Numbered from the stretch's first letter, positions 5,883-37,167 are shown. The stretch is DNA of 64,000 nt from Candidatus Poseidoniaceae archaeon (GCA_965662895.1 CBFIJH010000005.1:57928-121927); one strand, 5' to 3'. Program-made: numbers and translations. The notes: generated by a model not told the origin, from the sequence alone.

Positions 5883-5886
5883 TCCT

Positions 5887-11280: not shown

Positions 11281-14004
11281 ATGCTGAAGCAACGGACCGT
11301 TGTGTTAACACTCTTGTTGCTTCTTACCTTCGTTCCGTCCTATGCGACTGAAGGGACTGAAGATGAAATTGTTGAAAAGTTCGGTGTTGGATTCGATGAA
11401 GTAACCATTGCAGATTCCTCGGACTATCTCAACGATCCGCGAGATTTGGAATTCCATCCAGGTCGCGCCAATGAGTTGTGGATCGCCAATCGAGCGACAG
11501 ACAGCATTACCATCGTTGAAAACACGGGATTGTCGAATCAAACCTCTCAAAATCGAGCAGATTCAAACAGGAATCATTTCTTGGAAGAAGTGAGTGCGAT
11601 TTCCTTCGGCGCCTATCATCCTGAATTCGATTGGCAATGGGGTTCTGCCCAAGAAACTGGAAACACCTACTGCGGTCAAGCCCCTGCGAATTATTTCATG
11701 GGTCCGACTCTTTGGCCATCATCGTTGAATCATTTTGCTGTTGAGAACCAAAACAACGGCAATGGGCTCCTTGGTAGCCACATCGATATGAACCATGAAT
11801 CGCCATTCGGTGTTGGGATTGCACACGATTATGACAACGTTTACTGGTACAACGATGGCTACTACGGCGAACTGGTTCGATACGATTTCAAAGAAGATCA
11901 CGATACGGGCCAAGACGATCATTCCGATGCTGTCGTGCGTCGTTACACGGAAATTAGTCTCACACACTTCTACGGTATTCCAGGCCACATGGTGATGGAC
12001 AAATCGAATGGAATGCTTTACATCGCAGACGCTGGAGCAAACCGTGTTCTTTGGGTCAATACTGACGATACGACAACCACATCGACCAATATCATGGACG
12101 ATGCCTCGCGATTGGAACCGCTTGCAGAGTACTCAGAAATCACCGACGTTGAATGGGGGGTTCTTGCAACTGGACTCAACCTCCCATCAGGAATAGCACT
12201 CGCAGACGGCCAGCTCTTTGTCTCAGAGAACGGGAACGGCAAGATTGTCGCTTACGAACTGGCTTCCGATGGAAAGAGCGCTGTTGAACTTGACGAAATC
12301 CAGACGACTGCTACGTCCATCATGGGATTGGAAGTTGGACCAAATGGACATCTCTACTATGTTGATAATGGTCAAGATAAGGTCGTTCGAATCGACCCTT
12401 ACACCGATGAAGACGATGATGGTGTCGGCGATCAAGTCGACAATTGTCCGAGCATCGCAAATCCGTTGCAAGCCAACTTTGACAACGATTCAATGGGAGA
12501 TGTTTGCGATTCCGATGACGACAATGACTCGGTGCTGGATGTTGACGACCAATGCATCCTCGGCCAACTCGACTGGACGTCAACGATACTGAACGATCAT
12601 GATGGAGACGGATGTCTCGATGCGACGGAAGACTTGGATGATGACAACGATGGTGTTGCTGATCCCTCCGACCTATGCTCCACAGGTGACTTGGGATGGA
12701 CCTCATCACCCTCAACCGATTACGATGGGGATGGATGCCAGGATGCACTGGAGGATGTTGATGATGACAACGACAGAGTTTGCGATGCAAGTGATCTGAG
12801 CAGCTCTTGGGCTTGTACACCATCGACTGCGAACGTCGATCTCTGCCCTCAAAGCTCTCTCGGTTTCTTCTCAAACAATCAAAACGACGTTGATGGTGAC
12901 GGTTGTGAAGATGCCACTGAAGATACGGACGACGACAACGATGGTTTTGCTGATGACGTTGATGCTTGTCCATTGGATGCAGGAACAAGTTCGCTTGGTT
13001 TTGTTGTTGGTTGCAGCGATTACGATTCCGATGGGTACAGTGATTCCATCGATTTGTTCCCGACAGAGTCGACACAGTGGTTGGATTCAGATGGTGATGG
13101 ATACGGTGACAATCCAGATGGTTTCGAAGCAGACGCCTGCGCAAACGAATCAGGGCAGTCAACTGCGGATTCATTTGGATGTCCCGATGCGGACGGTGAC
13201 GGTTGGTCGAATCTCAACGATGCTTTCCCGAACGAAGTAACCCAACATTCTGATGAAGATGGTGATGGCTTTGGAGATGCCACGGACGGCTTTCAAGGGG
13301 ACGACTGTCTCGGTGTTCCTGGAACATCAACAAAGGACTTCTTTGGATGCTTGGACCCGGATGGTGACGGATGGTCGGATTTGAACGATGCCTTCCCTCA
13401 AGAACCAACACAACATACTGACGCTGATGGAGATGGTTACGGTGATAATGCAGAGGGAAATCTTCCAGATAGTTGCCCAGAACTGTACGGTCTTTCTTCC
13501 ATCGATCGGTATGGTTGTCCAGATAGCGATGGTGACGGGTGGGAGGATCGCTCCGATGCATACGTAAATGACGCTCGACTTTGGTCCGATAGAGATGGTG
13601 ATGGCTATGCCGGCCAACAAGGAACAAATCTTTCCGATGATTGTCCTGAGACGTATGGCACATCAATTCTTGATTTCCGAGGGTGCTTGGATTCTGATGG
13701 TGATGGCTGGTCCGATAAGACCGATGCGTATCCAAACGATGCGTCGAAGTATCTCGCTTCAGAAGAGGCACCAGAAGACAACGACTTCACGCTCCTAGGT
13801 CTTGGAATCGGAGTACTTGTTCTCGTGTTCCTCATGTTTGCTATCATGCGTAGGAAGACAACAGTAGAGCCAGAGTTTGGCTTCGCAGCCCCTCCAATTC
13901 CACAACCGCTTCCACGTGCACCGCCGCTTCCTCCAGAAGGCTTGCCAGCTGGTTGGACGATGGAGCAATGGATGGTCTATGGCGAGGATTATCAAAAACC
14001 GTAA
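11281..14004 (+). CDS. Large type-I cell-surface protein: NHL/SMP-30-like beta-propeller N-domain plus ~10 TSP3-like acidic Ca-binding repeats, a C-terminal TM anchor and a Pro-rich cytoplasmic tail
   Basis: Signal peptide MLKQRTVVLTLLLLLTFVPSYA. SD GAGGT 8 nt upstream. NHL-like blades: YIADAGANRVLWVN, LPSGIALADGQLFVSENGNGKIVAYEL, GPNGHLYYVDNGQDKVVRIDP. Repeats: C.D.DGDGWSD..DAFP.E.TQH.D.DGDGYGDN. TM helix LLGLGIGVLVLVFLMFAI followed by PPIPQPLPRAPPLPPEGLPAGW. Confidence 0.75.
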   Translation: MLKQRTVVLTLLLLLTFVPSYATEGTEDEIVEKFGVGFDEVTIADSSDYLNDPRDLEFHPGRANELWIANRATDSITIVENTGLSNQTSQNRADSNRNHFLEEVSAISFGAYHPEFDWQWGSAQETGNTYCGQAPANYFMGPTLWPSSLNHFAVENQNNGNGLLGSHIDMNHESPFGVGIAHDYDNVYWYNDGYYGELVRYDFKEDHDTGQDDHSDAVVRRYTEISLTHFYGIPGHMVMDKSNGMLYIADAGANRVLWVNTDDTTTTSTNIMDDASRLEPLAEYSEITDVEWGVLATGLNLPSGIALADGQLFVSENGNGKIVAYELASDGKSAVELDEIQTTATSIMGLEVGPNGHLYYVDNGQDKVVRIDPYTDEDDDGVGDQVDNCPSIANPLQANFDNDSMGDVCDSDDDNDSVLDVDDQCILGQLDWTSTILNDHDGDGCLDATEDLDDDNDGVADPSDLCSTGDLGWTSSPSTDYDGDGCQDALEDVDDDNDRVCDASDLSSSWACTPSTANVDLCPQSSLGFFSNNQNDVDGDGCEDATEDTDDDNDGFADDVDACPLDAGTSSLGFVVGCSDYDSDGYSDSIDLFPTESTQWLDSDGDGYGDNPDGFEADACANESGQSTADSFGCPDADGDGWSNLNDAFPNEVTQHSDEDGDGFGDATDGFQGDDCLGVPGTSTKDFFGCLDPDGDGWSDLNDAFPQEPTQHTDADGDGYGDNAEGNLPDSCPELYGLSSIDRYGCPDSDGDGWEDRSDAYVNDARLWSDRDGDGYAGQQGTNLSDDCPETYGTSILDFRGCLDSDGDGWSDKTDAYPNDASKYLASEEAPEDNDFTLLGLGIGVLVLVFLMFAIMRRKTTVEPEFGFAAPPIPQPLPRAPPLPPEGLPAGWTMEQWMVYGEDYQKP
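12418..13780 (+). repeat. Intragenic tandem TSP3-like repeats (~35-45-aa units)
   Basis: Repeated gatggtgatgg / gacggtgacgg blocks. These create long spurious His/Arg-rich antisense ORFs. Confidence 0.6.
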
Positions 14005-20101: not shown

Positions 20102-21973
20102 TTACGAAGGAATCGGTTGTTGATCCCACCAAGGTGGAGCCAAGAACCATGCCTCATGATTTGCAGGCCGGTCTATGAGTGGCAATCCAATAGTACCTCC
20201 TTCAATGGAGACGCCTCCGAGTGGATTTGTTGCACATGGACCTGGAAGATAATCCTCTCCGCTTTCTGTCAGTTCGATTCGTAACGAGTGACCTGCTGGG
20301 ACAACAACATCGAGTGGATTAAATTCCATCAACATCGTATACGACGAAAACGGTGCAACAGGGTTGGCTTCGTATCCCCCGTCTCTGTAACGGATGTCCA
20401 TGGTCGCATGTCCCAGTCGAAGATTCAGTGTATCATCGTAGAGTGTCGCAAAAATCTGGCCACCGTTGCATGCCTGTGTGGAAACGTCGAGGTGAAGCGT
20501 TGGTAGCCCGGACAGATGGAGCCCATCTTCGTACACTTGGCTCGTAAGGAGAACAGTTCCTCCAGAGCCACTGACAACCCCATCACCATTCCACTCCGTT
20601 CCGATTTCTTCCATTTGCCACGTCATGTCTTCAGGAGGCCATGTTTCTTCGACGTGCCATTGACCATCATGCGTTTGAATTTGCACCATCGGCTCGGGTT
20701 CATCACCAATGTCTTTCAGATAGTATTGGAACCAGCCATACAGTTCAACGGCCCAATCCATTCGACTCATGTTCGGATAAGCCTCTCCGCCATAGCCAGG
20801 ACCCAACTCACTGTGTCGATCGGGTTGATCTGGGTAATTATGAGCCCACTGTCCTGCGATGGCTCTTGCATTAATGCCTGCATCTCGCATCAATTGATAC
20901 GTTGGGAACGCATGATACGGATCAACGTTCCAGTCCTGAAGACCCCATACAAGGTAGACGCTTCCACGGTAATTTTCGAGAACATCTGGAAGATGTCGGC
21001 GTTCGTCCCAATAATCATTCCATTCAGCTCCTCCAAATTCAGCGAAGGCATAAGTTGACCATGGATTGAGTGGGCCAACAAGGTCATCAGAGCAGACACG
21101 CATGTCGTCGGTGGTCAAATCCGCCGTTGCAGCTTGGTAGGCAGCGTCGTAACCCATTGCACGGGCTTCAGATGAGCCGTTTCTGTAGAACATCTCTTGC
21201 ACGCCAATCGATCCTGAAATAGGGACGATGGTTTTCAGATGTTCACTTGGTTGTTGAGCGGCTTCCCAATTGGTCGTTCCAGCATAGGATTTCCCCATCA
21301 AGCCAACGTTTCCATTGGACCAATTTTGTTGTCCCAACCACTCAACAACCGCTTGGATTCCAACCTGTTCTCCAAGTCCTTTCACATCTTGACAATGGGT
21401 CGATTTCCCTGTACCAAATGTACTTGCTTGGGCAAGTGCATAACCATGCGGAACGAAGGTGTCGTAAACCCACTGTCCAACTCCACCGTCTGGAATGGTG
21501 TTTGGATTGGAATCTTCACCAATGCCTGGCATGCCCTCTCCCCCGAAGTCATAGTACGGATGGATGGTCATGATGACAGGTACTTTGACCCCTTCTTCAA
21601 CATCTGGCAACCAAAGTGCAACATGCATTTTCGCTTCATCCGGATAACCGATATCTTGCTCGGAAGCGGGTAAGTCCACTGTGATGAAATGTTCTGAATA
21701 AGGAAGGATGTCATAGGTCCCGTTTTCCGGGAGTTGTGCTCGCATCGTGTCCATTGGTAAATCCATCATGTGACGGTCGTGGAGTGGTGTTTCCCACCAA
21801 TTCTCACTATTTTGAACATTCTTTTCATCCGAAAGAGCCTCTCCAAAAGACATTGAGAGGAAAAGGAAAGCGATACAAAACGCAATTGTTGCAGAGAGGG
21901 AGATGTTGAGTTGCGTCTTGGCCAACGATGATGTTGACTCGATGACATCTGCATCGACAACGTCATCAGCCAT
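20102..21973 (-). CDS. S15-family Xaa-Pro dipeptidyl-peptidase / CocE-NonD hydrolase with an N-terminal membrane anchor
   Basis: Nucleophile elbow VGLMGKSYAGTTNW (GxSYxG). Length ~620 aa. N-terminal helix IAFCIAFLFLSMSF. Confidence 0.75.
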   Translation of the reverse strand: MADDVVDADVIESTSSLAKTQLNISLSATIAFCIAFLFLSMSFGEALSDEKNVQNSENWWETPLHDRHMMDLPMDTMRAQLPENGTYDILPYSEHFITVDLPASEQDIGYPDEAKMHVALWLPDVEEGVKVPVIMTIHPYYDFGGEGMPGIGEDSNPNTIPDGGVGQWVYDTFVPHGYALAQASTFGTGKSTHCQDVKGLGEQVGIQAVVEWLGQQNWSNGNVGLMGKSYAGTTNWEAAQQPSEHLKTIVPISGSIGVQEMFYRNGSSEARAMGYDAAYQAATADLTTDDMRVCSDDLVGPLNPWSTYAFAEFGGAEWNDYWDERRHLPDVLENYRGSVYLVWGLQDWNVDPYHAFPTYQLMRDAGINARAIAGQWAHNYPDQPDRHSELGPGYGGEAYPNMSRMDWAVELYGWFQYYLKDIGDEPEPMVQIQTHDGQWHVEETWPPEDMTWQMEEIGTEWNGDGVVSGSGGTVLLTSQVYEDGLHLSGLPTLHLDVSTQACNGGQIFATLYDDTLNLRLGHATMDIRYRDGGYEANPVAPFSSYTMLMEFNPLDVVVPAGHSLRIELTESGEDYLPGPCATNPLGGVSIEGGTIGLPLIDRPANHEAWFLAPPWWDQQPIPS

Positions 21974-22146
21974 ATTCGACCCAAGCCTTGGATGTTGAAG
22001 AGGGTGGCGATTCTGTGGAAGTCAAAAATTCAAAGATTCATTCGAATACCAGTGCCATCGAAATCGTACTACAATTGATTCTCGGAATGGAAACAGCGTC
22101 GCATTGAGCCCACAACGCTCAAAGAGTTCGGAGCAAAGGCAGAGAT

Positions 22147-23382
22147 ATGAGCACCCGTCGCCTCTTCGCTGCAGTACGGGACCTTGATCCACCCGGCGGC
22201 GGCGCAGAGCGTTCCTTGGCGGCTCTGCTGAACGGAATTGCTCGGCCGGGTCCAACACTTGAAACAGCACCGACATACGTACCACTGTCCCCTGCGAAGG
22301 ATGCACCAACCCATCCAGCATGGACGGTCAGTGCCTTTGCGAGTCACGATCGAGGCGAACCAATCGGCTTGCTCGAGCCCGAAGTGAACCATGCAACCAC
22401 AGATCTTCCAATTGAAGGGCTCTGGTCGAAGGTTGCTTGGGGATTGAGGGAACGAAGAGGTGAGTTGCGACGTCGTAAGTGGGCCCTCGATCGACACATC
22501 GCTCGACGTAGTGCTCAATTCGCCGGTCGTGTCGGTTCGTGGTTGGACAAACAGGAACATACAGGTGGTATTGGATTAACCCAACTTGACTGGGCCCCTG
22601 GAGCTGCAAAAGCGTTTACTGCCCGTGGGATGCCATACATCATGTTCGTTCGTGATGACACGGCATTCCGCCTTGAGGAACGCTTTCGCCCTGTACTGGA
22701 GGGCGCAGCTCTTGTTTGTGCCGCTGGAGAAGGCCTCCTCGCTGACATACGCTCTCGCTTTGCTATTCAAAAAGGTCACAGCGTTCCTCTGCCAATTGAT
22801 TTTGAAGGGCGCTTTGGAAGCATGGACGATGTGAATGCTTTGCGGCTGGCTGAGCAGGCAAAGCGACCCGATACAGCTCCGCCCACGATCGGTGTAATTG
22901 TCGTAACTCCAGAAAAGGGTTTGCGAATCTATCAACGCCTCTTACCGAGGTTGCTTGAGCGATGGCCAGAAGCAGTAGTCCACATTGCTGGTGGAAGTGC
23001 TTATCCGCAACAACTCGTACGTCACTCGAACGCACGCGTGCTGGGTCATGTCGATGCAGCGACATTCTTCGCAGGCATCGATGTTCACCTTATTCTGTTT
23101 GAAACGACCGGTTCATGGGGCCGAGTTATAGGAGAAGCAGGCTTGTTCGGTGTGCCAACTGTAACGTCCGATGTTGGCTCACAAAAGGAAGCCTTGGGTG
23201 AGGGAGGCATTCTGGTGGACGATGGTCATGATACGGATGCAGTCATCGACGCCTTGAAGGCGGTTTATGACGATCGTGAGCGATACGGTGCATTGGCTCG
23301 AAAACACACCCAAATGGTAGATCATCGACGCTCTGTTGCGGCTTTCCGTAGCGGCCTCGAAGATTTGTTGAACGACCGATAA
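22147..23382 (+). CDS. Glycosyltransferase, GT4-like (GT-B fold)
   Basis: N-terminal PPGGGAERSLAALLNGIARPG (GT4 motif). C-terminal FETTGSWGRVIGEAGLFGVPTVTSDVGSQKE (E-x7-E region). Arg/Ala-rich non-acidic composition. The 5' half is 58-66% GC in hand-counted samples. Confidence 0.65.
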   Translation: MSTRRLFAAVRDLDPPGGGAERSLAALLNGIARPGPTLETAPTYVPLSPAKDAPTHPAWTVSAFASHDRGEPIGLLEPEVNHATTDLPIEGLWSKVAWGLRERRGELRRRKWALDRHIARRSAQFAGRVGSWLDKQEHTGGIGLTQLDWAPGAAKAFTARGMPYIMFVRDDTAFRLEERFRPVLEGAALVCAAGEGLLADIRSRFAIQKGHSVPLPIDFEGRFGSMDDVNALRLAEQAKRPDTAPPTIGVIVVTPEKGLRIYQRLLPRLLERWPEAVVHIAGGSAYPQQLVRHSNARVLGHVDAATFFAGIDVHLILFETTGSWGRVIGEAGLFGVPTVTSDVGSQKEALGEGGILVDDGHDTDAVIDALKAVYDDRERYGALARKHTQMVDHRRSVAAFRSGLEDLLNDR

Positions 23383-23439
23383 CACGTCAGTTGGTGCTTG
23401 TTGTAATACCTGCGTCAGAGAACTCTACCTGACCAACCT

Positions 23440-24195
23440 TCATCTTGTGAGTTTGTCCTTCATTCCCCAATAGAGTCGTTTTGCTGACTGTTTGACTTTT
23501 CTTCTAACCGAAATGTGCTCTTTTTGGAACAGGTAGGTCGGTGTTGCGGCGTAGTTAACACGATCCGTCGTGTACCCAAATTTGGACACAGCATCTCTGA
23601 ACAATCTGAATTCATTTTTTGTAGCCAATTCAGCAAAAATCACGGGTGACTGATTCTCAAGTATGTGCTTCGCACCTTGAATAATGGGAAGCTCGAATCC
23701 CTCAACATCTATCTTGATCAAAGCAATGTTGTCGACACCCTGCATAATGTGGTCAAGGGTGTCCACCTCTCTTTGGGAGCCTTCTACATTCACGATTTTT
23801 GTCATACCTGCATTGAGATGGTTGGTATCGGAGAGGTCAACAAACCCTTTTCTGTCCAGAATGCCAATTTCCCCAAGGATGTAGCTGTCCTCTGAGCAGT
23901 TGAGTTCCATGTTTTCCTTCAAGATTGCAAAAATCGATTCATCGATTTCAAAACTGTACACTTTTGTTGAGTTGCAAAAGCGATTGAAAAAAATAGAATG
24001 GTTGCCAATATTGGCCCCAATATCAACGTAGACACCCTCCAAACCCAATGAGCGAGCTTTTTCAAGCAACTTCTCTTCGTAGAATGTTTCCTCAGTTACG
24101 ATTCGGTCAAAGATTGAATCGTCAGCGTGGTAACCTTTCATGGTGATTTGCTGATTGGAATACACAAATTCCGTCACCACCCGGTCCTGACCCAT
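23440..24195 (-). CDS. FkbM-family SAM-dependent methyltransferase
   Basis: VDIGANIGNHSIFF (SAM motif I) and the FkbM signature LIKIDVEGFELPII. AT-richer than its surroundings (38-46% GC in samples). Confidence 0.75.
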   Translation of the reverse strand: MGQDRVVTEFVYSNQQITMKGYHADDSIFDRIVTEETFYEEKLLEKARSLGLEGVYVDIGANIGNHSIFFNRFCNSTKVYSFEIDESIFAILKENMELNCSEDSYILGEIGILDRKGFVDLSDTNHLNAGMTKIVNVEGSQREVDTLDHIMQGVDNIALIKIDVEGFELPIIQGAKHILENQSPVIFAELATKNEFRLFRDAVSKFGYTTDRVNYAATPTYLFQKEHISVRRKVKQSAKRLYWGMKDKLTR

Positions 24196-24219
24196 GGAAG
24201 GGCTACCAACTCGGTGCCT

Positions 24220-25419
24220 TTAATTCTCTTTCAAGGGTGCGTTGGATGAGAGGACAGTCTCGTAAACCTCCAGCAATCGGTTCCGAATTGCATCTTTGCT
24301 GTACCTCGCTTCAACGCCATCTCGCATTATTTGAGTGTCCCATTCCATGTCAATCATGCTGCCCATCGCCTCTGCCAAGCCATCCACATCGTCGACGTCG
24401 ACGAGCAGACCATCCTCCTTCCGGACGATGTCGTTTGGGCCGCCACAGCGGGTGGCGACGACAGGTCGACCTGTGGAAAGTGCTTCGATTAACACGATGC
24501 CAAATGTTTCGTATCGGCTTGGGTGAACAAAGGCATCGATTTCTTGAAAGAATTCACACGCTTTTTCCCTTGGTACTGTGCCAACAAACTCGACTCTGTC
24601 GTCCATTCCATATGCAGAGGCTAACGCCTGCAGCTGTTTCCGAAGTGGGCCGTCACCAGCCAGCAGAAGTTTTGCGTTTGTGACTTGTTTGAAAGCTTGC
24701 AGCAAGGTTTTGTGGCCTTTGTCATTCACTAGGTTAGCCATGTATCCAAACGTGAATGTAGCGTTTTTTGGTTGAGGTGTGTAAGGGAATTTTTCTACAT
24801 CGATCATGTTCGGTATTGTGGTGAATTTTGATGCCTGGATGCCCAGAACTTGTTCCAAATCGTTGGCCAATGTACTACTGACTGACAAGAGCCGGTTGGC
24901 TGATTTCAATGCTGACTTTGCAGTAATTTGTTCCCGCGGCCCAACAATGTTTCTTCCGAAAATGCTTGAGTGGACGGTCACAATGTACGGGATTTTTTCT
25001 CTCTCAGCGATGGCTTTCGCTAGAATAGCTCCCCACATTGTTGCTTTGGCATGAATGATGTCCGGGGGGCCGTGCACTGCTCTGTAGGCGTCGTACATCT
25101 TCAGTGCCAACTTCTCATGAGAACGGACAAATGAACGGTATACCGAGGGAATATTGTGAAGTGGACCCGGTTGGAACAACCGTTTGCTGGCTCGTACCAC
25201 GGTCAAGTTGTTTTCCACAGTCGTTGTGATTGACCGACTCGGCCCTTTGAGCCATGTTGCAGAGGGAAGGTGATGAAATATTGCATGAAGAACCCCGACT
25301 TTGTGGCCGACTTCTGCGAACATTTCGGCCTGTTCTCTGAAAAAGGTGCCTGAAAGAGGTGCATCTGGGCTTGGGTACCAAGAGGGAATAAAGAGGATAT
25401 GGTGTTTCGTCAATTGCAT
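24220..25419 (-). CDS. Glycosyltransferase family 4 (GT1 superfamily)
   Basis: RYETFGIVLIEALSTGRPVVATRCGGPNDIV (E-x7-E). Start trimmed to MQLTKHHILFIPSWYP. Confidence 0.8.
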   Translation of the reverse strand: MQLTKHHILFIPSWYPSPDAPLSGTFFREQAEMFAEVGHKVGVLHAIFHHLPSATWLKGPSRSITTTVENNLTVVRASKRLFQPGPLHNIPSVYRSFVRSHEKLALKMYDAYRAVHGPPDIIHAKATMWGAILAKAIAEREKIPYIVTVHSSIFGRNIVGPREQITAKSALKSANRLLSVSSTLANDLEQVLGIQASKFTTIPNMIDVEKFPYTPQPKNATFTFGYMANLVNDKGHKTLLQAFKQVTNAKLLLAGDGPLRKQLQALASAYGMDDRVEFVGTVPREKACEFFQEIDAFVHPSRYETFGIVLIEALSTGRPVVATRCGGPNDIVRKEDGLLVDVDDVDGLAEAMGSMIDMEWDTQIMRDGVEARYSKDAIRNRLLEVYETVLSSNAPLKEN

Positions 25420-25642
25420 CACCACTCCTTCGCGAACCACTGGCGGTGAGCCGGTCTGAGGACACACATGCAAACCAACAATCTTGTTGGTTATGAGTCA
25501 ATTCATGTGTGCTTAAACCTTTCCAAGTACTGGATTTCGTGCCGAATTCAGCCTGCTGGACACGACGTTAAATCACTCGCTTTCAGTCCTATCAGCCGAT
25601 TCATGGGATTGGTTATTTAATGATGGAGCCGGTGTTCTCACT

Positions 25643-26242
25643 ATGACAGAAAGTCCTGAAGGGGGTTCATTTTTCAAAAAGTGGGTCATGAGGCAATACT
25701 GGAGAATGCAACAATCTCAAGCTGTCGTCAGTTTGTTGTTGTGGGGGACAACCATCACCCTACTTGTTTGGCCTCTAATCAAATGGAGATTCACTGCAGA
25801 ATGCGCTTCAGGTCTTTGTATTTCTGACGAGTTTTTTGGCATATCCAGTACGTATTTTGCACTTGCTGGCATCTTTTTCACAGTCATGTTCGGCGTTCTC
25901 ACAATTGGATTTCTTTACGATCAAGTGTTCTCTCTTTGGACCGAGTATCGAAATGTCGATATGGAGCGCAACCCATTTGCAACCTATGCGCTTGCTCCAA
26001 TTTGGGTCATGACGATTGCATTACAAGCCGAGGTTTTGAAGCGCACTTCACCCGATGATGAAGCAATGGTCAAACAAGCTAATTGGTGCCTCAAATGGTG
26101 CGAGGCGTACACAGAAGGTGAGATGTTTGCTCGTGCTGTTCAACGCTGGGACGAAGATTTAGGAGAAACGCCAACATTTTGGTTTACAAGCGATGAGGCG
26201 ATGGAGCGAGCCCGGCAGACTTCCTTCGAAGATGAATCTTGA
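25643..26242 (+). CDS. Hypothetical membrane protein
   Basis: 199 aa. 3-4 helices followed by an acidic tail. Confidence 0.5.
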   Translation: MTESPEGGSFFKKWVMRQYWRMQQSQAVVSLLLWGTTITLLVWPLIKWRFTAECASGLCISDEFFGISSTYFALAGIFFTVMFGVLTIGFLYDQVFSLWTEYRNVDMERNPFATYALAPIWVMTIALQAEVLKRTSPDDEAMVKQANWCLKWCEAYTEGEMFARAVQRWDEDLGETPTFWFTSDEAMERARQTSFEDES

Positions 26243-26349
26243 TTGAGTTCGCACAAGAAACATCCAACATCGGACATGTTTGCTCCACAATTATCTTTGA
26301 ATGAAAGTGGTTGTAGCTTACAATCAAATTGCTCTTTAACCGCTAGGTT

Positions 26350-27357
26350 GTGCCTCCAAACATGCCCAGCGTTCTTGTCACAGGCGGGTCGGGAATGCTT
26401 GGCCAACACCTCGTTCCGATGCTTATAGAGCATGGACATGATGTCCGTGCTCCAACCAGTCAAGAACTTGATCTTACGGATGCTGAAGCAACAATGGATT
26501 TTTTCAAAGACAAGCAAATCAGCATTGTAATCCATTGCGCAGCCTATGTTGCAGGTATTGCATCAAGTCAAACCATCAAACATCATTCTCTGGATCAAAA
26601 CATATCCATGGGTTTGAATCTCATACGTGCCTGTGTTCGAAATGGCATTTCAGATCTCATCAATGTCGGGAGTGCCACTGTCTACCCAAATGAAGCACCT
26701 CAACCTCTCTCCGAATCCTCAATTGGAAACGGCCCGCTCGAAGGCCCGATTGAAGGTTATGCCTTATCGAAATACGTCGTTTATCGAGCGTGTGCAATGG
26801 CCAATGAACAGCATGATGTTTCCTTCAAGACGATTCTACCTTGCAATCTGTTTGGTCCTTACGATAATTTTTCCTTGGAAACTGGGCACATGCTCCCAGC
26901 CATCTTGCATAGAATGCATCAGGCAAAACAGAGCAAGCAAGCATCTGTTACAATATGGGGTGATGGAACGGCCAAGCGAGAATTCCTTTACGCCCCAGAT
27001 TTCGCGGATTTCCTTTGTTTTGCTCTTGACAACTTCGATGCACTACCAGATGTGATGAACGTAGGCTCGGGTCTTGAGATAAGTGTCAATGAAATGCATA
27101 AACACATGGCTGATGTCATTGAGTTCACGGGCGATTTTCTCCACGATTTCGACAAACCGGTTGGCCGTCTTCGCAGATGTTTGGACTTGAAGCATCAACG
27201 GGCCTTGGGATGGGCTCCAAAGACGCCGTTTAAACAAGCCTTGGAATCAACCTACAATTATCTCCTTGATCGCTTTCATGAAAGTCCTATCTGGAGAAAA
27301 GATGCTACATCCTATTCGCAAAGTTGTTGGAGCCGAAGTAATTCGTCAAATGATTGA
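26350..27357 (+). CDS. NAD-dependent epimerase/reductase, GDP-L-fucose synthase-like
   Basis: Rossmann motif VLVTGGSGMLGQHL. The HDVRAPTSQELDLTD spacing resembles GMER/Fcl. Y...K expected downstream of YALSKY. Confidence 0.7.
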   Translation: MPPNMPSVLVTGGSGMLGQHLVPMLIEHGHDVRAPTSQELDLTDAEATMDFFKDKQISIVIHCAAYVAGIASSQTIKHHSLDQNISMGLNLIRACVRNGISDLINVGSATVYPNEAPQPLSESSIGNGPLEGPIEGYALSKYVVYRACAMANEQHDVSFKTILPCNLFGPYDNFSLETGHMLPAILHRMHQAKQSKQASVTIWGDGTAKREFLYAPDFADFLCFALDNFDALPDVMNVGSGLEISVNEMHKHMADVIEFTGDFLHDFDKPVGRLRRCLDLKHQRALGWAPKTPFKQALESTYNYLLDRFHESPIWRKDATSYSQSCWSRSNSSND

Positions 27358-29471: not shown

Positions 29472-32400
29472 ATGGAAGAACGGCCAGTATGGAAAGGGCG
29501 ATTTTTGGCACTGTGTTTCACCGTGTTTTTTGCAACCCCCATACTTGCACCGTTTGCCTCTGCAGACGGTATGACAACCTGTGATGGCGTACCCGGTTTC
29601 AGTGATTGCGATGATTATGATTCAAACGATGATGGAACACCCTTTCAACAAGATTGGATTCGTGGAACGTACGATTTCGATTTGCAAGATACTTCAACAA
29701 TCCAAATGACATTGAGTTGGGCGGTGCGTGAATTCGATCGCAGCAAAGTCGGTCTCGATGATTCGACGACGAGTACTGCTCTCGCAAATGATGGATTGGA
29801 TGAGGATGATGGGATTCCAGCTGATATGATTCGAACCTACTTCGCCTACGAACCCAGCCCAGGAGCTGGTACCGTTGGTGACCAAATGTTGGACGACGTT
29901 CAAGATACAATCAGCGAACTCCTCTCGAGTGGATTCGGAACCGTTACAGCAATCAACACACAATACGATGGAATTTATTCCGAGGGAGGAAACACCGAGA
30001 TTTGTACGACCGATGCAAACGAAGACTCGGTCTACGATTCTGGCTCGGGCGTTACGGAGAACAACGTCTTCGACCCGCCCATTTGCTTCTCGACCATTGC
30101 CGAGATTCAGTTATCAACAAGCACATTCAATTTACTTGAAAATACGGACCTTGAACTTGAACGTGCGTATCAAGGCCTGCTTATTATGGGTTCAGAATTG
30201 ACAACGCAATTCAACGTCTTTGCAGAACCCGGTCACGTCTCAACCTTCTCGATTCATCCTCCGAATTATGCCACGGTCGTCGGTGTCGATGGAAACGGTT
30301 CCATCGTTCCTAATCCTTGTACAGTGGCGACCTGCGCAGGTCAGTGGACAGTGGAAAATCTGAACGCAGGTACAGATGCGTCTCGTGCCGAACAAACGGT
30401 CAGTTTGACCATGGGATATCGAAACACCTCGACAACGTCCATTGTCGAACTCGATCCGAACAAAGAGGCCGTATCGCTCCATCTCAAGGTGGATTTATTT
30501 GACGAACAAGAGGTTCAAATCGACTTCGTTGCAGGTATCAACTATCTTGATACGACAACAATGGACAATTGGGGCATTTCTCTCGTAGAATTATCCGAAT
30601 TAGCAACCATTCCTCAAATTACCTCCGATGGAATTCGTTTAGCGTATGAAAACGGAATCGCTCCTCTCGACGATTTCACCGATCAATTCCCAGTTGCATC
30701 GATTGGCGATGCGTTTTCAGCATCTATCCCAGGATCGCCTGACATTCAGATGGGACAATTATCATGGGTAAGTGATTCAGTCGCTGAGGGAATTGATGGG
30801 CCGGCTGGAGGATTGAATTACAGTCATTCCGTTGGCTGTTCTGAAACTGTGACACCACCGAACACAATCTCCTACTGTATCGAAGGACCCAGTGCTATGG
30901 GTTACGACCATCCAATCTATCTCCGTTCAACGAGCAACACGTTTGATCTTGGGTTGCTGGACCTCATTCAAGAGAATATACCGGATTCTGAATTCGAACT
31001 GGATGGTAAAACATACAACACGAAGGATTATTTTGAACTTATTACGAACGAAGACCTTCGAAGGCTGATGGATGCTGGTTTGTCGATTGAAACGGTCCTT
31101 GATACAGATTTCCTCGAAACCATGATTCCGTCTGATCTTCCACCGTCAAAAATTACACTTGAACTGATTCTACCGAGTTGGATTGTAACCGCCGATGGTT
31201 CTGACCGCATCATCCTTGAACACTCAGCATCAGGTGAAACCAGGAATGAAATCTCAATTGCAGGACCTTCTCCTTACACCTATAATCATCCAATCCTCAA
31301 TGAAGACGGTGAAACCATTTGTTTGCAAACGCAGAAGACCTGTGTTTCAACATCCCTATCCATTGATTTCGAGACCTTCGACATCAACGAATGGACGAAA
31401 TCTGTTTCCATTGAGTTTGGCCTTGAAGCCACTGCAGTTGTTCACCGAATCGCTGTTCCACAGGGGTATTACGACGTGAATGACACAACTGTCCGCATGG
31501 AGGTCATTCCAAGCGATTTAATCCGGTTGATTGGGGATATTATGAGTCGTGATGAGGAAAAAGCAATCTCCATCGAACGATGCCTTGAGTCAAACATAAA
31601 AAATTCCAATGCCTGTCCTGAGGAAAGTAGGCTTCAATTCAATCTTACATCCGATGGTTTGATGCAATTTGGAACCGATGCTGGAGAACTTCTCACACAC
31701 CAGATTCACACGCAGGTTGAAAAACTAGAAACGAGTGACGAAGGGCCTGAATTCTCGGAGGTTGACATCAGTGATTTTGTCATTGAAACGAGCCTTGCAG
31801 GACTTGGAAGTCCAGGACAAACCGTTTCTGATGAAGTGGGCCTAAGCGTGAGTCTCAAGATTCCAAAAGTTCGATTTACACTGGCTGTATCGAGCCCATG
31901 GGGCGATTTACTGAGTGGCGATCCTGACGCAATAACGCTCTCACTTCTTACCGAGGACATCAGTGGTGCTTTCCGTTCACCACTGCTTCAACCCATGGTC
32001 ATGATGGTCGATGAAATGTCGTCGATGATGACAGCAAGCCTTGTTTCATCAGAGGGAATTACATTCCCGCCGCTCGAGCAGGAAGCATTGATTGTTGAAA
32101 CAGGTTCTTGGGATACGACAATTCACGAAGATACGGAATTTGATTTGACTGGACCGGTCAGTTTCACGTTACCAAAAGGCATCATCGTCAAAGAGGGAAC
32201 ATCTACGCAAGGAAACATGATCATCACCGAAGATGATGAAGGGCGTCAAGTCATTACGTACACAATTCCGCCGGACGGTCTCGATGATGAAGTAACACTT
32301 CGGCTTCAAGTAACGTGGATGTATCTGCTTGGTCAATTTTGGGCTTATCCGGCTGTTGTTGTTATTCTGCTCATCCTTCTGATACGGCGTCGCCGCAAGA

Positions 32401-32579
32401 AGAAAAAGAAAAAGCGAGCTGCTAGAGAAGCAAAGAATTCACTGTACAAGGCCCAGAAGATGGGCTTATCGGAGTCCGACTTCGCTCAAATGGCTGGATC
32501 GGTTGACCGTCAAGTCGGAGGATACGATGAGGGAATCAATCCATTTGAAGCGATGCAACGTGAACCGCCTCAACCTTAG
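29472..32579 (+). CDS. Large secreted cell-surface protein (1035 aa) with a C-terminal TM anchor and polybasic tail
   Basis: Signal peptide ...FATPILAPFASADG. No recognisable repeat family. C-terminal helix YPAVVVILLILLI followed by RRRRKKKKKKR. Confidence 0.65.
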   Translation: MEERPVWKGRFLALCFTVFFATPILAPFASADGMTTCDGVPGFSDCDDYDSNDDGTPFQQDWIRGTYDFDLQDTSTIQMTLSWAVREFDRSKVGLDDSTTSTALANDGLDEDDGIPADMIRTYFAYEPSPGAGTVGDQMLDDVQDTISELLSSGFGTVTAINTQYDGIYSEGGNTEICTTDANEDSVYDSGSGVTENNVFDPPICFSTIAEIQLSTSTFNLLENTDLELERAYQGLLIMGSELTTQFNVFAEPGHVSTFSIHPPNYATVVGVDGNGSIVPNPCTVATCAGQWTVENLNAGTDASRAEQTVSLTMGYRNTSTTSIVELDPNKEAVSLHLKVDLFDEQEVQIDFVAGINYLDTTTMDNWGISLVELSELATIPQITSDGIRLAYENGIAPLDDFTDQFPVASIGDAFSASIPGSPDIQMGQLSWVSDSVAEGIDGPAGGLNYSHSVGCSETVTPPNTISYCIEGPSAMGYDHPIYLRSTSNTFDLGLLDLIQENIPDSEFELDGKTYNTKDYFELITNEDLRRLMDAGLSIETVLDTDFLETMIPSDLPPSKITLELILPSWIVTADGSDRIILEHSASGETRNEISIAGPSPYTYNHPILNEDGETICLQTQKTCVSTSLSIDFETFDINEWTKSVSIEFGLEATAVVHRIAVPQGYYDVNDTTVRMEVIPSDLIRLIGDIMSRDEEKAISIERCLESNIKNSNACPEESRLQFNLTSDGLMQFGTDAGELLTHQIHTQVEKLETSDEGPEFSEVDISDFVIETSLAGLGSPGQTVSDEVGLSVSLKIPKVRFTLAVSSPWGDLLSGDPDAITLSLLTEDISGAFRSPLLQPMVMMVDEMSSMMTASLVSSEGITFPPLEQEALIVETGSWDTTIHEDTEFDLTGPVSFTLPKGIIVKEGTSTQGNMIITEDDEGRQVITYTIPPDGLDDEVTLRLQVTWMYLLGQFWAYPAVVVILLILLIRRRRKKKKKKRAAREAKNSLYKAQKMGLSESDFAQMAGSVDRQVGGYDEGINPFEAMQREPPQP

Positions 32580-34407: not shown

Positions 34408-36591
34408 ATGCTGACACCAGCCATGTTGCGGATTTTGCGTTGGTTGGATGACCACCCAACCACGCTCGAATCGGCTTGGGACGTCCCACGAACCATCTCA
34501 TTGGAAGGCATCGCCGACGGAATTGGTGTTGTTCGTTCTGCCCTTTTTCAGCCAATGAGCGTACTGGAAGATAACGAATTCCTAAAAACCAGACAAGCCC
34601 ATGTACTTGGATCAGGGCGCAGAAAACGGAAAGTTGTCCACATTACTGAAAAGGGACGCCAACAACTTCGAGAACAGGTGGAAAACCTCCCCGAGCGACG
34701 TTCAAGAGAATCGTTGAAGTTGAAAGGACAGATTCCTGAATGTACGAATTTGCACGGGCGTCAGTCTGAACTGGAATTGATGAAAAAATCCCTGGAGCAG
34801 AAAAGACCGATTCATCTACGAGGGATGCCGGGAATTGGCAAATCGACGCTCGCTCGTACCATGGTTCAGGAATTGGCTGAACGAGGAACAGAAATCCACT
34901 GGGCGGTTCTCGACGCCTACTGCGACGTGCATGAGGCGATGCAACGAATGGAGGTCGATTCACCAAGAATTCTTGAGGTTGAACATTATGCTAACATATT
35001 CGAAACCGAGAACGTTGTTCTGGTGTTTGATGATGTGCATACCATTTCTTCAAGACACAAATCATCCTTCCTCAGCTTCTTTCAAACACTCCTGAACAAC
35101 AACATCGCCTTCATGTTGATTGGAAGAGATCGAGAAACATTCTCAATCGAAGCAACCGTTGTTGATTTGGGACCGTTGGACCAATCCGATGCAATTGAAT
35201 TACTGGACCCTGAACTCGGCGAGAACAGAGCGTCAATTGTTGAAACATTGGGTGGTCACCCGCTTGCGATTTTGCTCTACAATGTCTCGACTCCACTTCC
35301 AGAGACGGATCAAGACGTTCGAGCCTACGTTGAACAGGTTGTGCTTGAACATGCCTCAACAGAGGTCCATGATGCAATGCAACCCTTCCTTGTCTTGCCA
35401 TTTCCAATCCCTGCAATGCGGATGCCCGAACCTGACCACGTTCCATTGCTCGATGAACACACGCTGTTGCGTTGGGGCGCACAGAATTCGGCAATGGAGA
35501 TGCAACATCTCATTCGCAACGTTTGTCGTTCTTCTCTTGAAGAATCTGATATTGATGCTCTCCATCAGTCTGCTATTTCACACTGGGAGAACGACGACGA
35601 CGCACTTGCGAAGATTCTTGAATTGCATCATCGGATTCAGAGAGGTGAAACGAATGTTTCAGTGCATTTGTCGCAACGCGCAAATGAATTGATGAATGCC
35701 CATTCGGGTGCTTTCGCAACTCTTTTGGATGAAGCTTTGGTCAATGAAAATGTGAACCTCGAATTGATTGAACTTGCCGCACAACATGCATTAAATCGGG
35801 CTGAACTTAACACTGCTAAAGAATACATCAAGGAGTTTGATGACCCTCGACTCGCCAACATCCGATTTCAGATTGCCCAGTATGAGGGAAAGAACGACGT
35901 CGTTCAACACTTGGAATCTTTGACCGATGGAATCGATGATCCGAATCAAAAATTACGTGTTCAACTTTCTGTTCTCTCTCGCAGCATTGATGACCTTACA
36001 CCACAGGCGACCGAGGATGACCATCGCCGCATCCATGGACTGCTCGAACGCGTCGATCTTCCTGACAAAGAAGGCGAACGCCAACGCATTTTGACCACAA
36101 TTGTCGTCATGCGACATGCGCTTGCCCTTGAACAGAGAGATTTCAATGCTGCAAATTTTCTTCTCGATCAATTGAAGAATATTGCGTTAACAGACGATCC
36201 TCTTCTTCACTATCTTTCAACAAAAACGGAACTGAAAATGTTGGAAAAAGGCTCTGCAGATGCTGCATTTACCTTGAAGAATGCAGAGCGTATCGCAACA
36301 CAGTTGAAACATCCGCTGTACAACGTTTCACTTTTCTTACTGCTTTGCGAACATCTTGTTGAAACGCAACCCCAGCGTGCTCAACTTCTCCATGAACAAA
36401 TCGATATCCAGGCCATTGAAACAATGACCGCACCATCAGCACGTCGAATCGTTGCGAAATGGTGGGAGGTGAAGTCGATGGTTGACGAGAAAGGTCGAAT
36501 TCTTGCACTGCGGGAAGCCATTCTTCGTTATCGTTCAGTAGGATGCCCAAACCGTGCTCGAAGGTTATCCAAGCGCTTGCACAGCCTGTGA
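34408..36591 (+). CDS. wHTH-STAND-type P-loop NTPase regulator (N-terminal winged helix, AAA_16-like ATPase, C-terminal helical/TPR-like)
   Basis: N-terminal ~100-aa wHTH, Walker A LRGMPGIGKSTLART, Walker B VVLVFDDVH, then ~400 aa of helical repeats. Divergent from uvrC. Confidence 0.65.
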   Translation: MLTPAMLRILRWLDDHPTTLESAWDVPRTISLEGIADGIGVVRSALFQPMSVLEDNEFLKTRQAHVLGSGRRKRKVVHITEKGRQQLREQVENLPERRSRESLKLKGQIPECTNLHGRQSELELMKKSLEQKRPIHLRGMPGIGKSTLARTMVQELAERGTEIHWAVLDAYCDVHEAMQRMEVDSPRILEVEHYANIFETENVVLVFDDVHTISSRHKSSFLSFFQTLLNNNIAFMLIGRDRETFSIEATVVDLGPLDQSDAIELLDPELGENRASIVETLGGHPLAILLYNVSTPLPETDQDVRAYVEQVVLEHASTEVHDAMQPFLVLPFPIPAMRMPEPDHVPLLDEHTLLRWGAQNSAMEMQHLIRNVCRSSLEESDIDALHQSAISHWENDDDALAKILELHHRIQRGETNVSVHLSQRANELMNAHSGAFATLLDEALVNENVNLELIELAAQHALNRAELNTAKEYIKEFDDPRLANIRFQIAQYEGKNDVVQHLESLTDGIDDPNQKLRVQLSVLSRSIDDLTPQATEDDHRRIHGLLERVDLPDKEGERQRILTTIVVMRHALALEQRDFNAANFLLDQLKNIALTDDPLLHYLSTKTELKMLEKGSADAAFTLKNAERIATQLKHPLYNVSLFLLLCEHLVETQPQRAQLLHEQIDIQAIETMTAPSARRIVAKWWEVKSMVDEKGRILALREAILRYRSVGCPNRARRLSKRLHSL

Positions 36592-37069: not shown

Positions 37070-37167
37070 AATGTCCGCTTGAGCAGAAGGGTCTTATCGC
37101 TTTGGTTTCGTTTTTCGGTGAACATGCAAAGGGTGCTTTCAAATGGTATCGCTTTGGATTATACAAT

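Follow-up and report, generated by a model that had tools for sequence, protein, structure and literature searches.

A probable flexible region of the replacement type in a predicted surface-glycan modification locus of a marine group II archaeon

RESULTS

Gene content of the locus

The window, that is, the whole 64-kb stretch of DNA that was analyzed, derives from a Poseidoniaceae member of the marine group II archaea. The locus and its left flank comprise the following genes.

20102 to 21973, minus strand: X-Pro dipeptidyl-peptidase (S15), assigned with Pfam; conserved left flank.
22147 to 23382, plus strand: GT4-1, a GT4/GT-B glycosyltransferase (PF13692, 51.4 bits; PF00534, 37.1 bits).
23440 to 24195, minus strand: FkbM-family SAM methyltransferase (PF05050, 52.7 bits; cut-off, 22.7).
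24220 to 25419, minus strand: GT4-2, a canonical GT4 glycosyltransferase (Pfam, 123.9 and 120.4 bits).
25643 to 26242, plus strand: p199, a 199-aa membrane protein, assigned by hydropathy.
26350 to 27357, plus strand: GDP-L-fucose-synthase-like SDR epimerase/reductase (PF01370, 198 bits; NF047922, 249 bits).

The Pfam and NCBIfam profiles, together with hydropathy, confirmed the gene content listed in an earlier note on this DNA (GT4, FkbM methyltransferase, GT4, membrane protein, and GDP-fucose-synthase-like protein). The C-terminal GT-B domain of GT4-1 scored above the Pfam gathering cut-offs for its two domain matches (27 and 26.4 bits), which places the protein in glycosyltransferase family 4. 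Its N-domain found no match in a Pfam search, its sole matches in the PDB were weak ones to the C-domain of PimA, and the AlphaFold model of the protein was poor (pLDDT, 55). GT4-1 is a divergent GT-B/GT4 enzyme rich in Arg, Ala, Gly, and Pro. The FkbM protein also matched TIGR01444 (86.6 bits; cut-off, 37.7), so that both profiles assign it to the FkbM family. In GT4-2 the N-domain was matched by Pfam as well, and its longest ORF extends to 25473 with a TTG start. p199 has two clear hydrophobic helices (two to three transmembrane helices) and an acidic C-terminal domain, and it had no match in Pfam or NCBIfam. For the last gene, an assignment as GDP-L-fucose synthase (Fcl) was rejected since the NF047922 score of 249 bits is below the 500-bit equivalog cut-off, and the product is termed Fcl-like only; the window ORFs that were scanned included no gene for a GDP-mannose dehydratase. 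Of the giant surface proteins of the window, for which the locus might supply glycans, only one (1606 aa) is enriched in N-X-S/T sequons.

The GC step follows the amino acid composition of the proteins

The earlier note had proposed, from hand-counted GC samples, that the locus was assembled from foreign pieces. The samples themselves (58 to 66% for the 5' half of GT4-1 and 38 to 46% for the FkbM gene) were roughly right. The 5' half of GT4-1 gave 67, 57, 54, 59, 50, and 60% in 100-nt bins (57.6% for the half-gene), and the bins of the FkbM gene gave 39 to 48%. The background of 50 to 55% was mistaken, as the GC content of the window is 48.0%, with an SD of 2.2% across 1.2-kb windows. GT4-1, at 55.0% (z = +2.5), has the highest GC content among 47 ORFs, and the FkbM gene, at 43.1% (z = -1.8), has the third lowest; the step of 12 points between them is the biggest for any adjacent ORF pair in the window. 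Such extremes would be expected had the genes been acquired recently from compositionally different, non-Poseidoniales donors whose signature is still un-ameliorated.

The step, however, is confined to codon positions 1 and 2. For GT4-1, GC1, GC2, and GC3 were.687,.498, and.461, and for the FkbM gene they were.480,.310, and.500, against a window GC3 of.466 +/-.047 (GC3 z of -0.09 for GT4-1 and +0.74 for FkbM). When GC content was predicted from protein composition and mean window codon usage, the values obtained (54.3% for GT4-1 and 42.3% for FkbM) fully accounted for those observed. Synonymous codon usage was typical for GT4-1 (z = -0.7) and gave a z of 2.1 for FkbM, and the tetranucleotide distances of both genes lay inside the window variance (|z| < 1.5). 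Orthologues hold the same values across hosts with GC3 ranging from.37 to.73, with GC1 of ~.66 to.69 and GC2 of ~.49 to.51 for GT4-1 and GC1 of ~.44 to.48 and GC2 of ~.30 to.31 for FkbM. The Arg/Ala/Gly/Pro-rich N-terminal sequence of GT4-1 was almost unchanged among 13 homologues, and the contrast of a high-GC glycosyltransferase with a low-GC methyltransferase recurs in the alternative cassette of a conspecific strain. The GC step is therefore not a transfer scar; it arises because the conserved amino acid compositions of the two proteins differ, GT4-1 being rich in Ala, Arg, Gly, and Pro and FkbM in Asn, Ile, Lys, and Phe.

The description of GT4-1 as Arg/Ala-rich and nonacidic was borne out (Ala, 12.2%, and Arg, 9.7%, both the highest proportions in the window; pI 6.9). 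Its portrayal as unlike its neighbors was only partly correct, since GT4-2 has a still higher pI of 8.3 and that of about one-third of the window proteins exceeds 6. GT4-2 is the sole real compositional outlier of the locus, with a codon-usage excess z of 4.8 and, at 24601 to 25800, the lowest tetranucleotide signature of the window (z = -3.8).

Homologues lie within the Poseidoniales

The closest homologues of GT4-1, FkbM, and GT4-2 were all from Poseidoniales, an outcome that the earlier note had itself named as refuting its reading. Each enzyme gene had dozens of Poseidoniales homologue clusters at 58 to 97% identity, and the homologue search of the three enzymes returned no non-Poseidoniales match closer than these. 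Nearly all of the genome loci (57 of 58) were from Poseidoniales MAGs. GT4-1 was 411 aa long throughout, with 78 to 90% identity within Poseidoniaceae and 40 to 44% in Thalassarchaeaceae, and it is a core gene across the order Poseidoniales. Outside the order, FkbM and GT4-2 fall to 30 to 48% identity and the few named matches are bacterial, so a very ancient bacterial origin of these families is possible. A recent transfer from outside the order is contradicted by the Poseidoniales clusters, and with host-like GC3, codons, and tetranucleotides and a GC content predicted by amino acid composition, base composition provides no evidence of foreign origin. We consider acquisition from foreign donors to be extremely unlikely.

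A tract is replaced between strains of the same species

Comparison with the conspecific contigs L096 and L097 delimited two further features directly.

22147 to 22358, plus strand: 5' anchor of GT4-1 (codons 1 to 70), the same in both strain types.
22359 to 24299, no strand: strain-variable replacement tract.

Between 22162 and 22358 there were zero mismatches to L096 (dS of the anchor, 0.017), and dense mismatches started at 22359. The tract contains codons 71 to 411 of GT4-1, the entire FkbM gene, and the final ~26 codons of GT4-2. It was 73 to 85% identical to L096 and L097 in GT4-1, with no homology across FkbM, whereas its flanks were 97 to 100% identical to the conspecific contigs. Correspondingly, dS was 0.95 in the tract (GT4-1 allele) and 0.02 to 0.10 in the flanks, a jump of about 20-fold; the peptidase gene had a dS of 0.035 against L096, and GT4-2 was 97% identical to L096 except at its 3' end. 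The breakpoints of the strain replacement are at 22359 and approximately 24299. In the place of the FkbM gene, five conspecific contigs (L096, L097, L099, L100, and L101) carry a gene for a 202-aa Methyltransf_23-like protein on the opposite strand, which had no BLASTP similarity to the FkbM protein and which was 80% identical to the methyltransferase of L079. Taken together, the contigs show that the segment from 22359 to 24299 has been swapped between strains of the same species.

A purely vertical locus, with nothing mosaic in it and merely unusual amino acid compositions and differing rates, would agree with the protein-level explanation of composition, with GT4-1 as an order-wide core gene, and with the GT4-1-FkbM-GT4-2-p199 order, which is collinear in several species. 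It would not account for a passage, within conspecific contigs, from 0 mismatches to ~20 to 25% divergence, then to a nonhomologous methyltransferase, and then to 97 to 100% identity, nor for the dS jump, the incongruent gene trees of the locus, or a near-identical 4.4 kb within a ~25%-divergent background (see below), and we judge it very unlikely. Surface-glycan enzymes are common targets of diversifying selection, and such selection, acting in situ and without recombination, might have driven the divergence of GT4-1 between strains. However, the dN/dS of ~0.09 inside the divergent part, at a dS of 0.95, points to old alleles under purifying selection, the adjacent methyltransferase is nonhomologous between strain types, and each of the two GT4-1 alleles is more closely related to sequences from other genomes. 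We consider this explanation extremely unlikely.

The allele comparison favors replacement. Residues 71 to 411 of the window GT4-1 were 86 to 89% identical to alleles in other genomic contexts and 78 to 81% identical to the sister-species clade, to which the conspecific GT4-1 allele was 86 to 88% identical. The window strain thus appears to carry an imported GT4-1 allele class over codons ~71 to 411, with the direction and age of the import suggested by clade affinities. No potential donor of this allele exceeded ~89% protein identity in the search. Grouping of the window with the sister clade (L064, L079, and L067) received only 70% bootstrap, on p199, its placement otherwise being judged from how similar the flanks are, with an approximate clock.

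A near-identical segment occurs in a divergent lineage

A second, larger segment was shared with a more distant relative.

21261 to 25717, no strand: inter-lineage shared segment, with 1 mismatch in 4.4 kb relative to a ~25%-divergent lineage.

Three contigs (L002, L004, and L005) shared ~75% identity with the window on the left side of position 21260 and matched it on the right side, with the junction at 21260/21261 within the peptidase gene. This indicates that 21261 to 25717 was probably transferred recently between lineages.

The strain variants and this shared segment could instead be metagenome assembly chimeras, formed where co-occurring Poseidoniaceae were joined at shared k-mers. The comparison sequences are short-read metagenome contigs throughout, including those behind the divergent-genome match, and many contigs break exactly at the same positions (several begin at 21261 to 21263, and others end at 25717 and at 26020 to 26025), revealing graph forks. 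Nevertheless, the variant arrangement was found with both flanks attached in five contigs from independent assemblies, assemblers, and samples, the window-type arrangement was found in at least three, and alternative cassettes were seen independently in species-representative MAGs. The L004-type junction recurred in three samples, and a chimeric join is unlikely given one junction in three samples. Chimeric assembly as a general explanation is likewise unlikely.

The slot between GT4-1 and p199 varies among species

Cassette diversity was also observed directly across Poseidoniales. Some species have no gene in the slot between GT4-1 and p199; in the remaining ones the slot contains GT4-2 only, FkbM with GT4-2, another GT4 with a Methyltransf_23 protein (L064), or an unknown protein with an FkbM-like protein. 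Another clade has NeuB/cytidylyltransferase genes at the slot, and NeuB/DegT neighbors occur in other clades. p199 co-occurs with GT4-1 in Poseidoniaceae and Thalassarchaeaceae, and it is a conserved partner of GT4-1 across the order, bounding the variable slot on the right.

No tRNA genes were found within the 64-kb window, the only border repeats found were of chance length, no viral copies were found, and a Pfam scan that covered 43 of the 47 window ORFs detected no integrase domain. The lack of a tRNA gene, border repeats, and viral copies points to homologous recombination as the likely mechanism of exchange.

DISCUSSION

The locus is most probably a small flexible region of the replacement type, set among genes predicted to modify a surface glycan or a lipid-linked glycan in a Poseidoniaceae archaeon. 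The idea of an assembly from foreign pieces holds insofar as comparative evidence reveals a mosaic of exchanged pieces, but the pieces come from the same family and not from foreign taxa. The further suggestion that such mosaicism is typical of surface-glycan loci was well founded, given the replacement tract, the imported allele, the near-identical copy in a divergent genome, and the alternative cassettes.

We propose that GT4-1 and p199, conserved across the order, bracket a slot for alternative mini-cassettes of a glycosyltransferase and a methyltransferase, that of this genome being FkbM and GT4-2. The cassettes, plus most of GT4-1, would pass between lineages of Poseidoniaceae through homologous recombination, with the first 70 codons of GT4-1, the GT4-2 body, the peptidase gene, and p199 serving as anchors. 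The glycans of strains of the same species would then differ in their decoration and, presumably, in their methylation. The predicted biochemical role is sugar transfer to, and O-methylation of, a cell-surface glycan; a role at the exposed cell surface is suggested by the GT4, FkbM, and Fcl-like domains, the membrane partner, and the NeuB/DegT neighbors elsewhere. Viruses or grazers may be the selective agent.

Lopez-Perez, Martin-Cuadrado & Rodriguez-Valera 2014 (PMC4033161) described, in aquatic prokaryotes, replacement flexible genomic islands ("glycosylation islands," glycotype loci), whose exchange proceeds through homologous recombination at boundaries that are conserved (PMC4033161; PMC8430335). 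The locus is of this known kind, being one small, ordinary recombination hot spot. As in those islands, it is found at one and the same place on the chromosome of related strains, has conserved boundaries, encodes glycosyltransferases and sugar-modifying enzymes, and lacks integrase and tRNA marks. Its contents are functionally equivalent yet nonhomologous (FkbM, PF05050, versus Methyltransf_23-like), its boundary is marked by a jump in mostly synonymous substitutions, and a near-identical cluster occurs in different clonal frames (the 21261-to-25717 segment of the metagenome contigs). Indirect hints of an under-recruitment of metagenomic reads, a further trait of such islands, come from the contig breaks at 21261, 25717, and 26020. 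Unlike those islands, which are exchanged as whole clusters of typically 20 to 40 kb, the exchanged unit of the locus spans 1.9 to 4.8 kb and one to three genes, and its two tracts, one of 1.9 kb and the other of 4.4 kb or more, have intragenic breakpoints, which fall inside glycosyltransferase genes and give chimeric enzymes. The divergence of one exchange partner is ~25%, compared with > 96% ANI, and the host belongs to the uncultured marine group II archaea.

Three other systems bear comparison. In bacterial O-antigen and capsule locus switching, glycosyltransferase/modifying-enzyme cassettes between conserved anchors are swapped by homologous recombination, much as proposed here. The present locus differs in that polymerase, flippase, and chain-length genes are absent, the envelope is archaeal and without LPS, and what varies amounts to a methyltransferase and part of a glycosyltransferase. 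The archaeal agl clusters (for example, the Haloferax AglP methyltransferase and Sulfolobus Agl16 [GT4]) similarly combine soluble glycosyltransferases with a SAM methyltransferase, and by analogy the enzymes of the locus could build and methylate a lipid-linked glycan. Membership in the Agl N-glycosylation pathway was not supported: the best match of GT4-2, Agl16, reached only 64 bits against a cut-off of 575, FkbM does not belong to the AglP family, no equivalog-level match was obtained, and the scan of window ORFs detected neither an oligosaccharyltransferase (STT3/AglB) nor a flippase. Classical horizontally acquired islands likewise vary in presence among relatives. A compositionally atypical transferred island was rejected, as GT4-1 and FkbM lie within the host range in GC3 and codon usage and GT4-2 alone deviates, and no tRNA, integrase, or border repeat accompanies the locus.

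More tentatively, GT4-1 and p199 might delimit an order-wide, two-anchor "glycan diversification slot" in which intragenic homologous recombination shuffles cassettes and also portions of the anchor enzyme, even between ~25%-divergent lineages. If so, surface-glycan methylation in uncultured marine group II archaea would be subject to fine-grained, virus-driven change, and the slot would be a direct marker of present inter-species gene flow in plankton.

The Fcl-like gene had been counted as part of the island. Between conspecific contigs it adjoins the exchanged tract but lies outside it (97.5% identity to L096), although it is missing at the locus of one related species (L064). Compared with three independent contigs, in which the stop occurs ~75 nt earlier, the window lacks 1 nt at ~27270, and this deletion accounts for the end at 27357; the 3' end of the gene in the window is thus frameshifted.

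Genes of the putative glycosylation locus

Homologue names and exact-protein look-ups place the sequence in seawater metagenomes, and its source is a Poseidoniaceae member of the marine group II archaea. This group is abundant and uncultured, and little has been done to characterize gene flow and variation of the cell surface in it. The locus comprises the following genes, GT4-1, FkbM and GT4-2 having been assigned by domain and family profile searches and p199 having been run through profile searches:

20102-21973, minus strand: S15 peptidase gene, flank on one side
22147-23382, plus strand: GT4-1, first GT4 glycosyltransferase, 411 aa
23440-24195, minus strand: FkbM methyltransferase, 251 aa
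24220-25419, minus strand: GT4-2, second GT4 glycosyltransferase, 399 aa
25643-26242, plus strand: p199, 199 aa, two clear TM helices, no family match
26350-27357, plus strand: Fcl-like SDR enzyme, top match GDP-L-fucose synthase at 249 bits (cut-off 500)

The other flank carries the cyclophilin and Trm5 genes. NCBIfam gave no equivalog matches for GT4-1, GT4-2 or p199. A sequence search of the PDB with GT4-1 returned only weak PimA/WbnH C-domain matches, and its AlphaFold2 model, made from a 13-sequence alignment, had a pLDDT of 55 (below 50 in the N-domain) and so gave no usable N-domain. Relative to three comparison contigs (L001, L002 and L003), the window has a 1-nt deletion at 27270 (between 27269 and 27271; TTGATTCGC -> TTGA-TCGC), which changes the reading frame over the final codons of the Fcl-like gene, and the ORF consequently extends into the cyclophilin gene as far as 27357. 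The three contigs instead have an ATGA overlap where the gene terminates. The deletion is a strain variant or else a sequencing error.

The GC step is a product of protein composition

The earlier note had read a GC mosaic at 22147-27357 as an island built from foreign pieces. The contrast itself was confirmed, since GT4-1 is the most GC-rich of the 47 ORFs in the window (55.0%, z +2.5) and FkbM the third lowest (43.1%, z -1.8), but the baseline of 50-55% was too high, the window having a GC content of 48.0%. In 100-nt bins, the 5' half of GT4-1 ranged from 50 to 67% GC (57.6% for the half-gene) and FkbM from 39 to 48%, and the step between the two genes was the largest among adjacent ORF pairs. 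As evidence of transfer, the contrast did not hold up. Both genes deviate only at codon positions 1 and 2: GC1, GC2 and GC3 were.687,.498 and.461 in GT4-1 and.480,.310 and.500 in FkbM, against a mean GC3 of.466 +/-.047 for the ORFs of the window. Furthermore, the GC content predicted from each protein's amino acids and the average codon usage of the window (54.3% for GT4-1 and 42.3% for FkbM) matched that observed. The GC step is therefore a product of protein composition and not a transfer scar. GC1 and GC2 were unchanged in orthologues from genomes with GC3 values from.37 to.73, the Arg/Ala/Gly/Pro-rich N-terminus of GT4-1 was nearly invariant across homologues, and the alternative cassette of a conspecific strain exhibited the same contrast (GT4-1, 53.7%; methyltransferase, 42.4%). 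In synonymous codon usage, GT4-1 could not be told apart from the other ORFs of the window (excess z -0.7) and FkbM was slightly off (z 2.1); the tetranucleotide distances of both were inside the variance. The locus is a cautionary case in which protein composition alone makes a striking GC step that a check of GC3 and codon usage exposes.

The sole true compositional outlier of the locus is GT4-2, which has the strongest deviation in synonymous codon usage of the window (z 4.8); the stretch 24601-25800 has the window's lowest GC-normalised tetranucleotide correlation (z -3.8). Despite its atypical composition, GT4-2 is 97-98% identical between both strain types. Elsewhere in the window, codon-usage deviations near that of GT4-2 were found in the ORFs at 2450-3868 (minus strand; z 4.4; PQQ/beta-propeller-like protein, GC3.571) and 7463-8275 (plus strand; z 4.0), and the GC minimum (41%) lies at 5.5-7 kb, with 38.8% in ORF 5812-6327.

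Nearest relatives lie within the same lineage

All comparison sequences were metagenome contigs or MAGs. Homologues of GT4-1 fell into over 100 clusters (78-90% identity), all of them 411 aa long and, where named, belonging to Ca. Poseidonia, Poseidoniaceae or Poseidoniales. When a single genome was scanned for each GTDB species, 58 GT4-1 loci emerged, 57 of them in Poseidoniales MAGs; identities were 78-90% within Poseidoniaceae but 40-44% within Thalassarchaeaceae. The lone exception, a relative at 56% identity in a contig binned as 'Salinimicrobium sp.' (L090, CAXRAI010000043.1), is probably mis-binned, since the family is otherwise found only in Poseidoniales. The nearest homologues of FkbM (58-89%) and GT4-2 (61-97%) were also in marine group II, followed by a gap and then by far homologues at <=48% identity, few of them named. 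The supposedly foreign pieces come from within the same archaeal family. Homologues in the same lineage and compositional indices within the variance are what the earlier note had named as refuting its reading, and both apply to GT4-1 and FkbM.

Strain-level replacement of GT4-1 and the methyltransferase

Five contigs from several assemblies and samples (L096, L097, L099, L100 and L101) encode a p199 protein identical to that of the window. Their flanks are fully syntenic with the window at 97-100% identity, from AFOR (aldehyde:ferredoxin oxidoreductase) to the peptidase and from p199 to Fcl, PPIase, Trm5 and a 1035-aa protein. Between these, the window differs sharply from the conspecific contigs from 22359 to ~24299. 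There were 0 mismatches at 22162-22358, whereas GT4-1 codons 71-411 were 73-85% identical, and the FkbM region was without homology, its place being taken by a 202-aa Methyltransf_23-like gene on the opposite strand. From ~24400, identity was back at 97-100%. The diverged part of GT4-1 had a dS of 0.95 and a dN of 0.089, compared with dS values of 0.02-0.10 in the peptidase, GT4-1 codons 1-70, GT4-2, p199 and Fcl. In-situ diversification of GT4-1 was rejected on this difference between tract and flanks; the diverged parts are instead old alleles set into a near-identical background via recombination. For marine group II archaea, this documents an exchange of glycosyltransferase and methyltransferase genes between strains, with breakpoints resolved to the base pair.

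A second strain-variable tract (~30850-32000), 5 kb from the first, lies within ORF 29472-32579, with 63-87% identity to L096 and 97-100% in the remainder of the ORF. The product (1035 aa, acidic, family-less) is probably a surface protein.

Origin of the GT4-1 allele

The GT4-1 proteins of the syntenic sister species (L064, L079, L067 and L065) formed a clade with 100% bootstrap support and 91-98% identity among members. The window allele was only 80-82% identical to them, as against 93-95% identity to L064 in AFOR, a JAB-like protein and the peptidase, values above those between L064 and L079. It had the non-sister state at 21 of the 22 diagnostic residues, and its residues 71-411 were closest to alleles in other genomic contexts (86-89%), those of L096 being closest to the sister clade (86-88%). 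From these observations we infer the direction of exchange: the body of the window's GT4-1 seems to have been imported from a different lineage of Poseidoniaceae. Among the sampled sequences, no donor was more than 89% identical to the allele. In the p199 tree, the window was placed with the sister clade at only 70% bootstrap. Two further proposals were rejected, namely a fine-scale mosaic of A and B alleles within the window's GT4-1 (21 of 22 diagnostic sites were non-A, unclustered) and an imported tract reaching the 5' end of the peptidase gene, which was unsupported because L079 declines similarly there.

A near-identical module in a divergent lineage

Contigs from three samples (L004, L002 and L005) matched the window rightward from 21261 with 1 mismatch in 4.4 kb, and directly to the left of this position they were ~75% identical. 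The left part of L004 was no closer to the window than to the sister species of the window (75-77% in either case). On both sides of 21261 the window remains 83-87% identical to its sister species, from which we infer that the L004 lineage is the likelier recipient of the module. The near-identity points to a very recent event, and adds a near-identical cassette common to divergent marine group II lineages. Several contigs begin at 21261-21263 and stop at 25717 or 26020-26025, indicating assembly-graph forks. The module-carrying lineage (L004 1-2550 and the left ends of L002 and L005) carries an inserted response-regulator gene upstream of the peptidase gene. Its peptidase gene has ~75% nucleotide identity to those of the window and the sister species.

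The GC3 of the module genes tracked host GC3 with slopes of 0.5-0.66 (0.57 for GT4-1 across 40 loci). GT4-1 GC3 often departed from that of its host, for example in L040 (.56, host.40) and L035 (.51, host.64), with further cases in L038, L071 and others. Recurrent gene flow between lineages could account for this mismatch, and so could gene-specific constraint. The slope was set aside as evidence of gene flow, as it fits gene-specific constraint as well.

Variable content between GT4-1 and p199

GT4-1 and p199 co-occur order-wide, p199 being directly upstream of GT4-1 in Thalassarchaeaceae. The content of the slot, the stretch between the two genes, varied among genomes.

Slot content across comparison loci
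Empty: L043, L050, L052
GT4-2 only: L048
SAM methyltransferase + GT4-2-like: L079
FkbM + GT4-2: window, L029, L036, L040, L051, L062, L067
Another GT4 + Methyltransf_23: L064
Unknown 300-aa protein + FkbM-like: L055, L066
Cytidylyltransferase/NeuB/PhyH cassette: high-GC Poseidoniaceae clade

The earlier interpretation is hence partly supported: the 22359-24299 swap, the GT4-1 allele classes, the near-identical module and the variable slot bear out a mosaic surface-glycan locus, reached through a GC argument that was wrong. The conserved GT4-1-p199 pair offers a handle to catalogue glycan-cassette diversity in metagenomes.

In L054 (5095-11233), and also in L026-L028, a p199-like gene and GT4-1 enclose a nonulosonic-acid-type cassette that encodes a cytidylyltransferase, NeuB, an unknown protein of 407 aa and PhyH. 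In L086 (Thalassarchaeaceae), GT4-1 is followed by a DegT aminotransferase. In CM001443.1 (L021/L044), the first published MG-II genome, GT4-1 is followed directly by only a p199 3' fragment, a 77-aa ORF (11387-11620) corresponding to window 26015-26242 at 84.6% nucleotide identity, the start of which coincides with the contig break position 26020-26025.

Mechanism of exchange

Window scans revealed no tRNA genes and no significant border repeats, the repeats present being not beyond chance, and no integrase domain was found in the window ORFs scanned. Scans of viral contigs found no relatives of GT4-1 or FkbM, and thus no sign of a viral vector. The breakpoints fall in the best-conserved sequences (GT4-1 codons 1-70, GT4-2, the peptidase gene and p199). 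Given these breakpoints and the lack of mobile-element marks, homologous recombination at conserved anchors is the most likely mechanism, as has been proposed for replacement flexible genomic islands (PMC4033161; PMC8430335). The locus has most of the defining features of a replacement-type glycosylation island, a phenomenon already well described in other aquatic microbes, but is unusually small, has intragenic breakpoints and includes one exchange that spans lineages ~25% divergent. It does not have the atypical composition and integrase or tRNA linkage of a classical island. In the literature on Poseidoniales glycosylation islands, nothing specific to the GT4-1-p199 locus was found.

Proposed function and surface proteins

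Based on domain families and gene neighbourhoods, GT4-1 would add a conserved sugar, perhaps tethered by p199, and the cassette enzymes (the glycosyltransferases and methyltransferases of the slot) would attach additional residues to an envelope glycan, or to its lipid-linked precursor, and O-methylate them. Most of GT4-1 was co-replaced with the methyltransferase, suggesting that the two may be functionally coupled. The glycan can plausibly be linked to the large acidic surface proteins, but the link is a weak one. The 1606-aa acidic protein at 37057-41877 (plus strand; right-handed beta-helix, PKD and Ig-like domains) has 28 N-X-S/T sequons, where shuffled sequences give an expectation of 15.5 (z 3.7); no sequon enrichment was seen in the window's other large acidic proteins, and AglB was absent among the window ORFs scanned.

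At 45131-49605 (minus strand), a GT2 glycosyltransferase gene adjoins genes for a squalene/phytoene synthase and an amine oxidase of the phytoene-desaturase-like type. Together they resemble a cluster for a carotenoid, possibly a glycosylated one, that has no relation to the glycosylation locus. At 34408-36591 (plus strand), a 727-aa protein with weak STAND/AAA NTPase matches (nSTAND3, NB-ARC) adjoins uvrC and may be a conflict-system NTPase.
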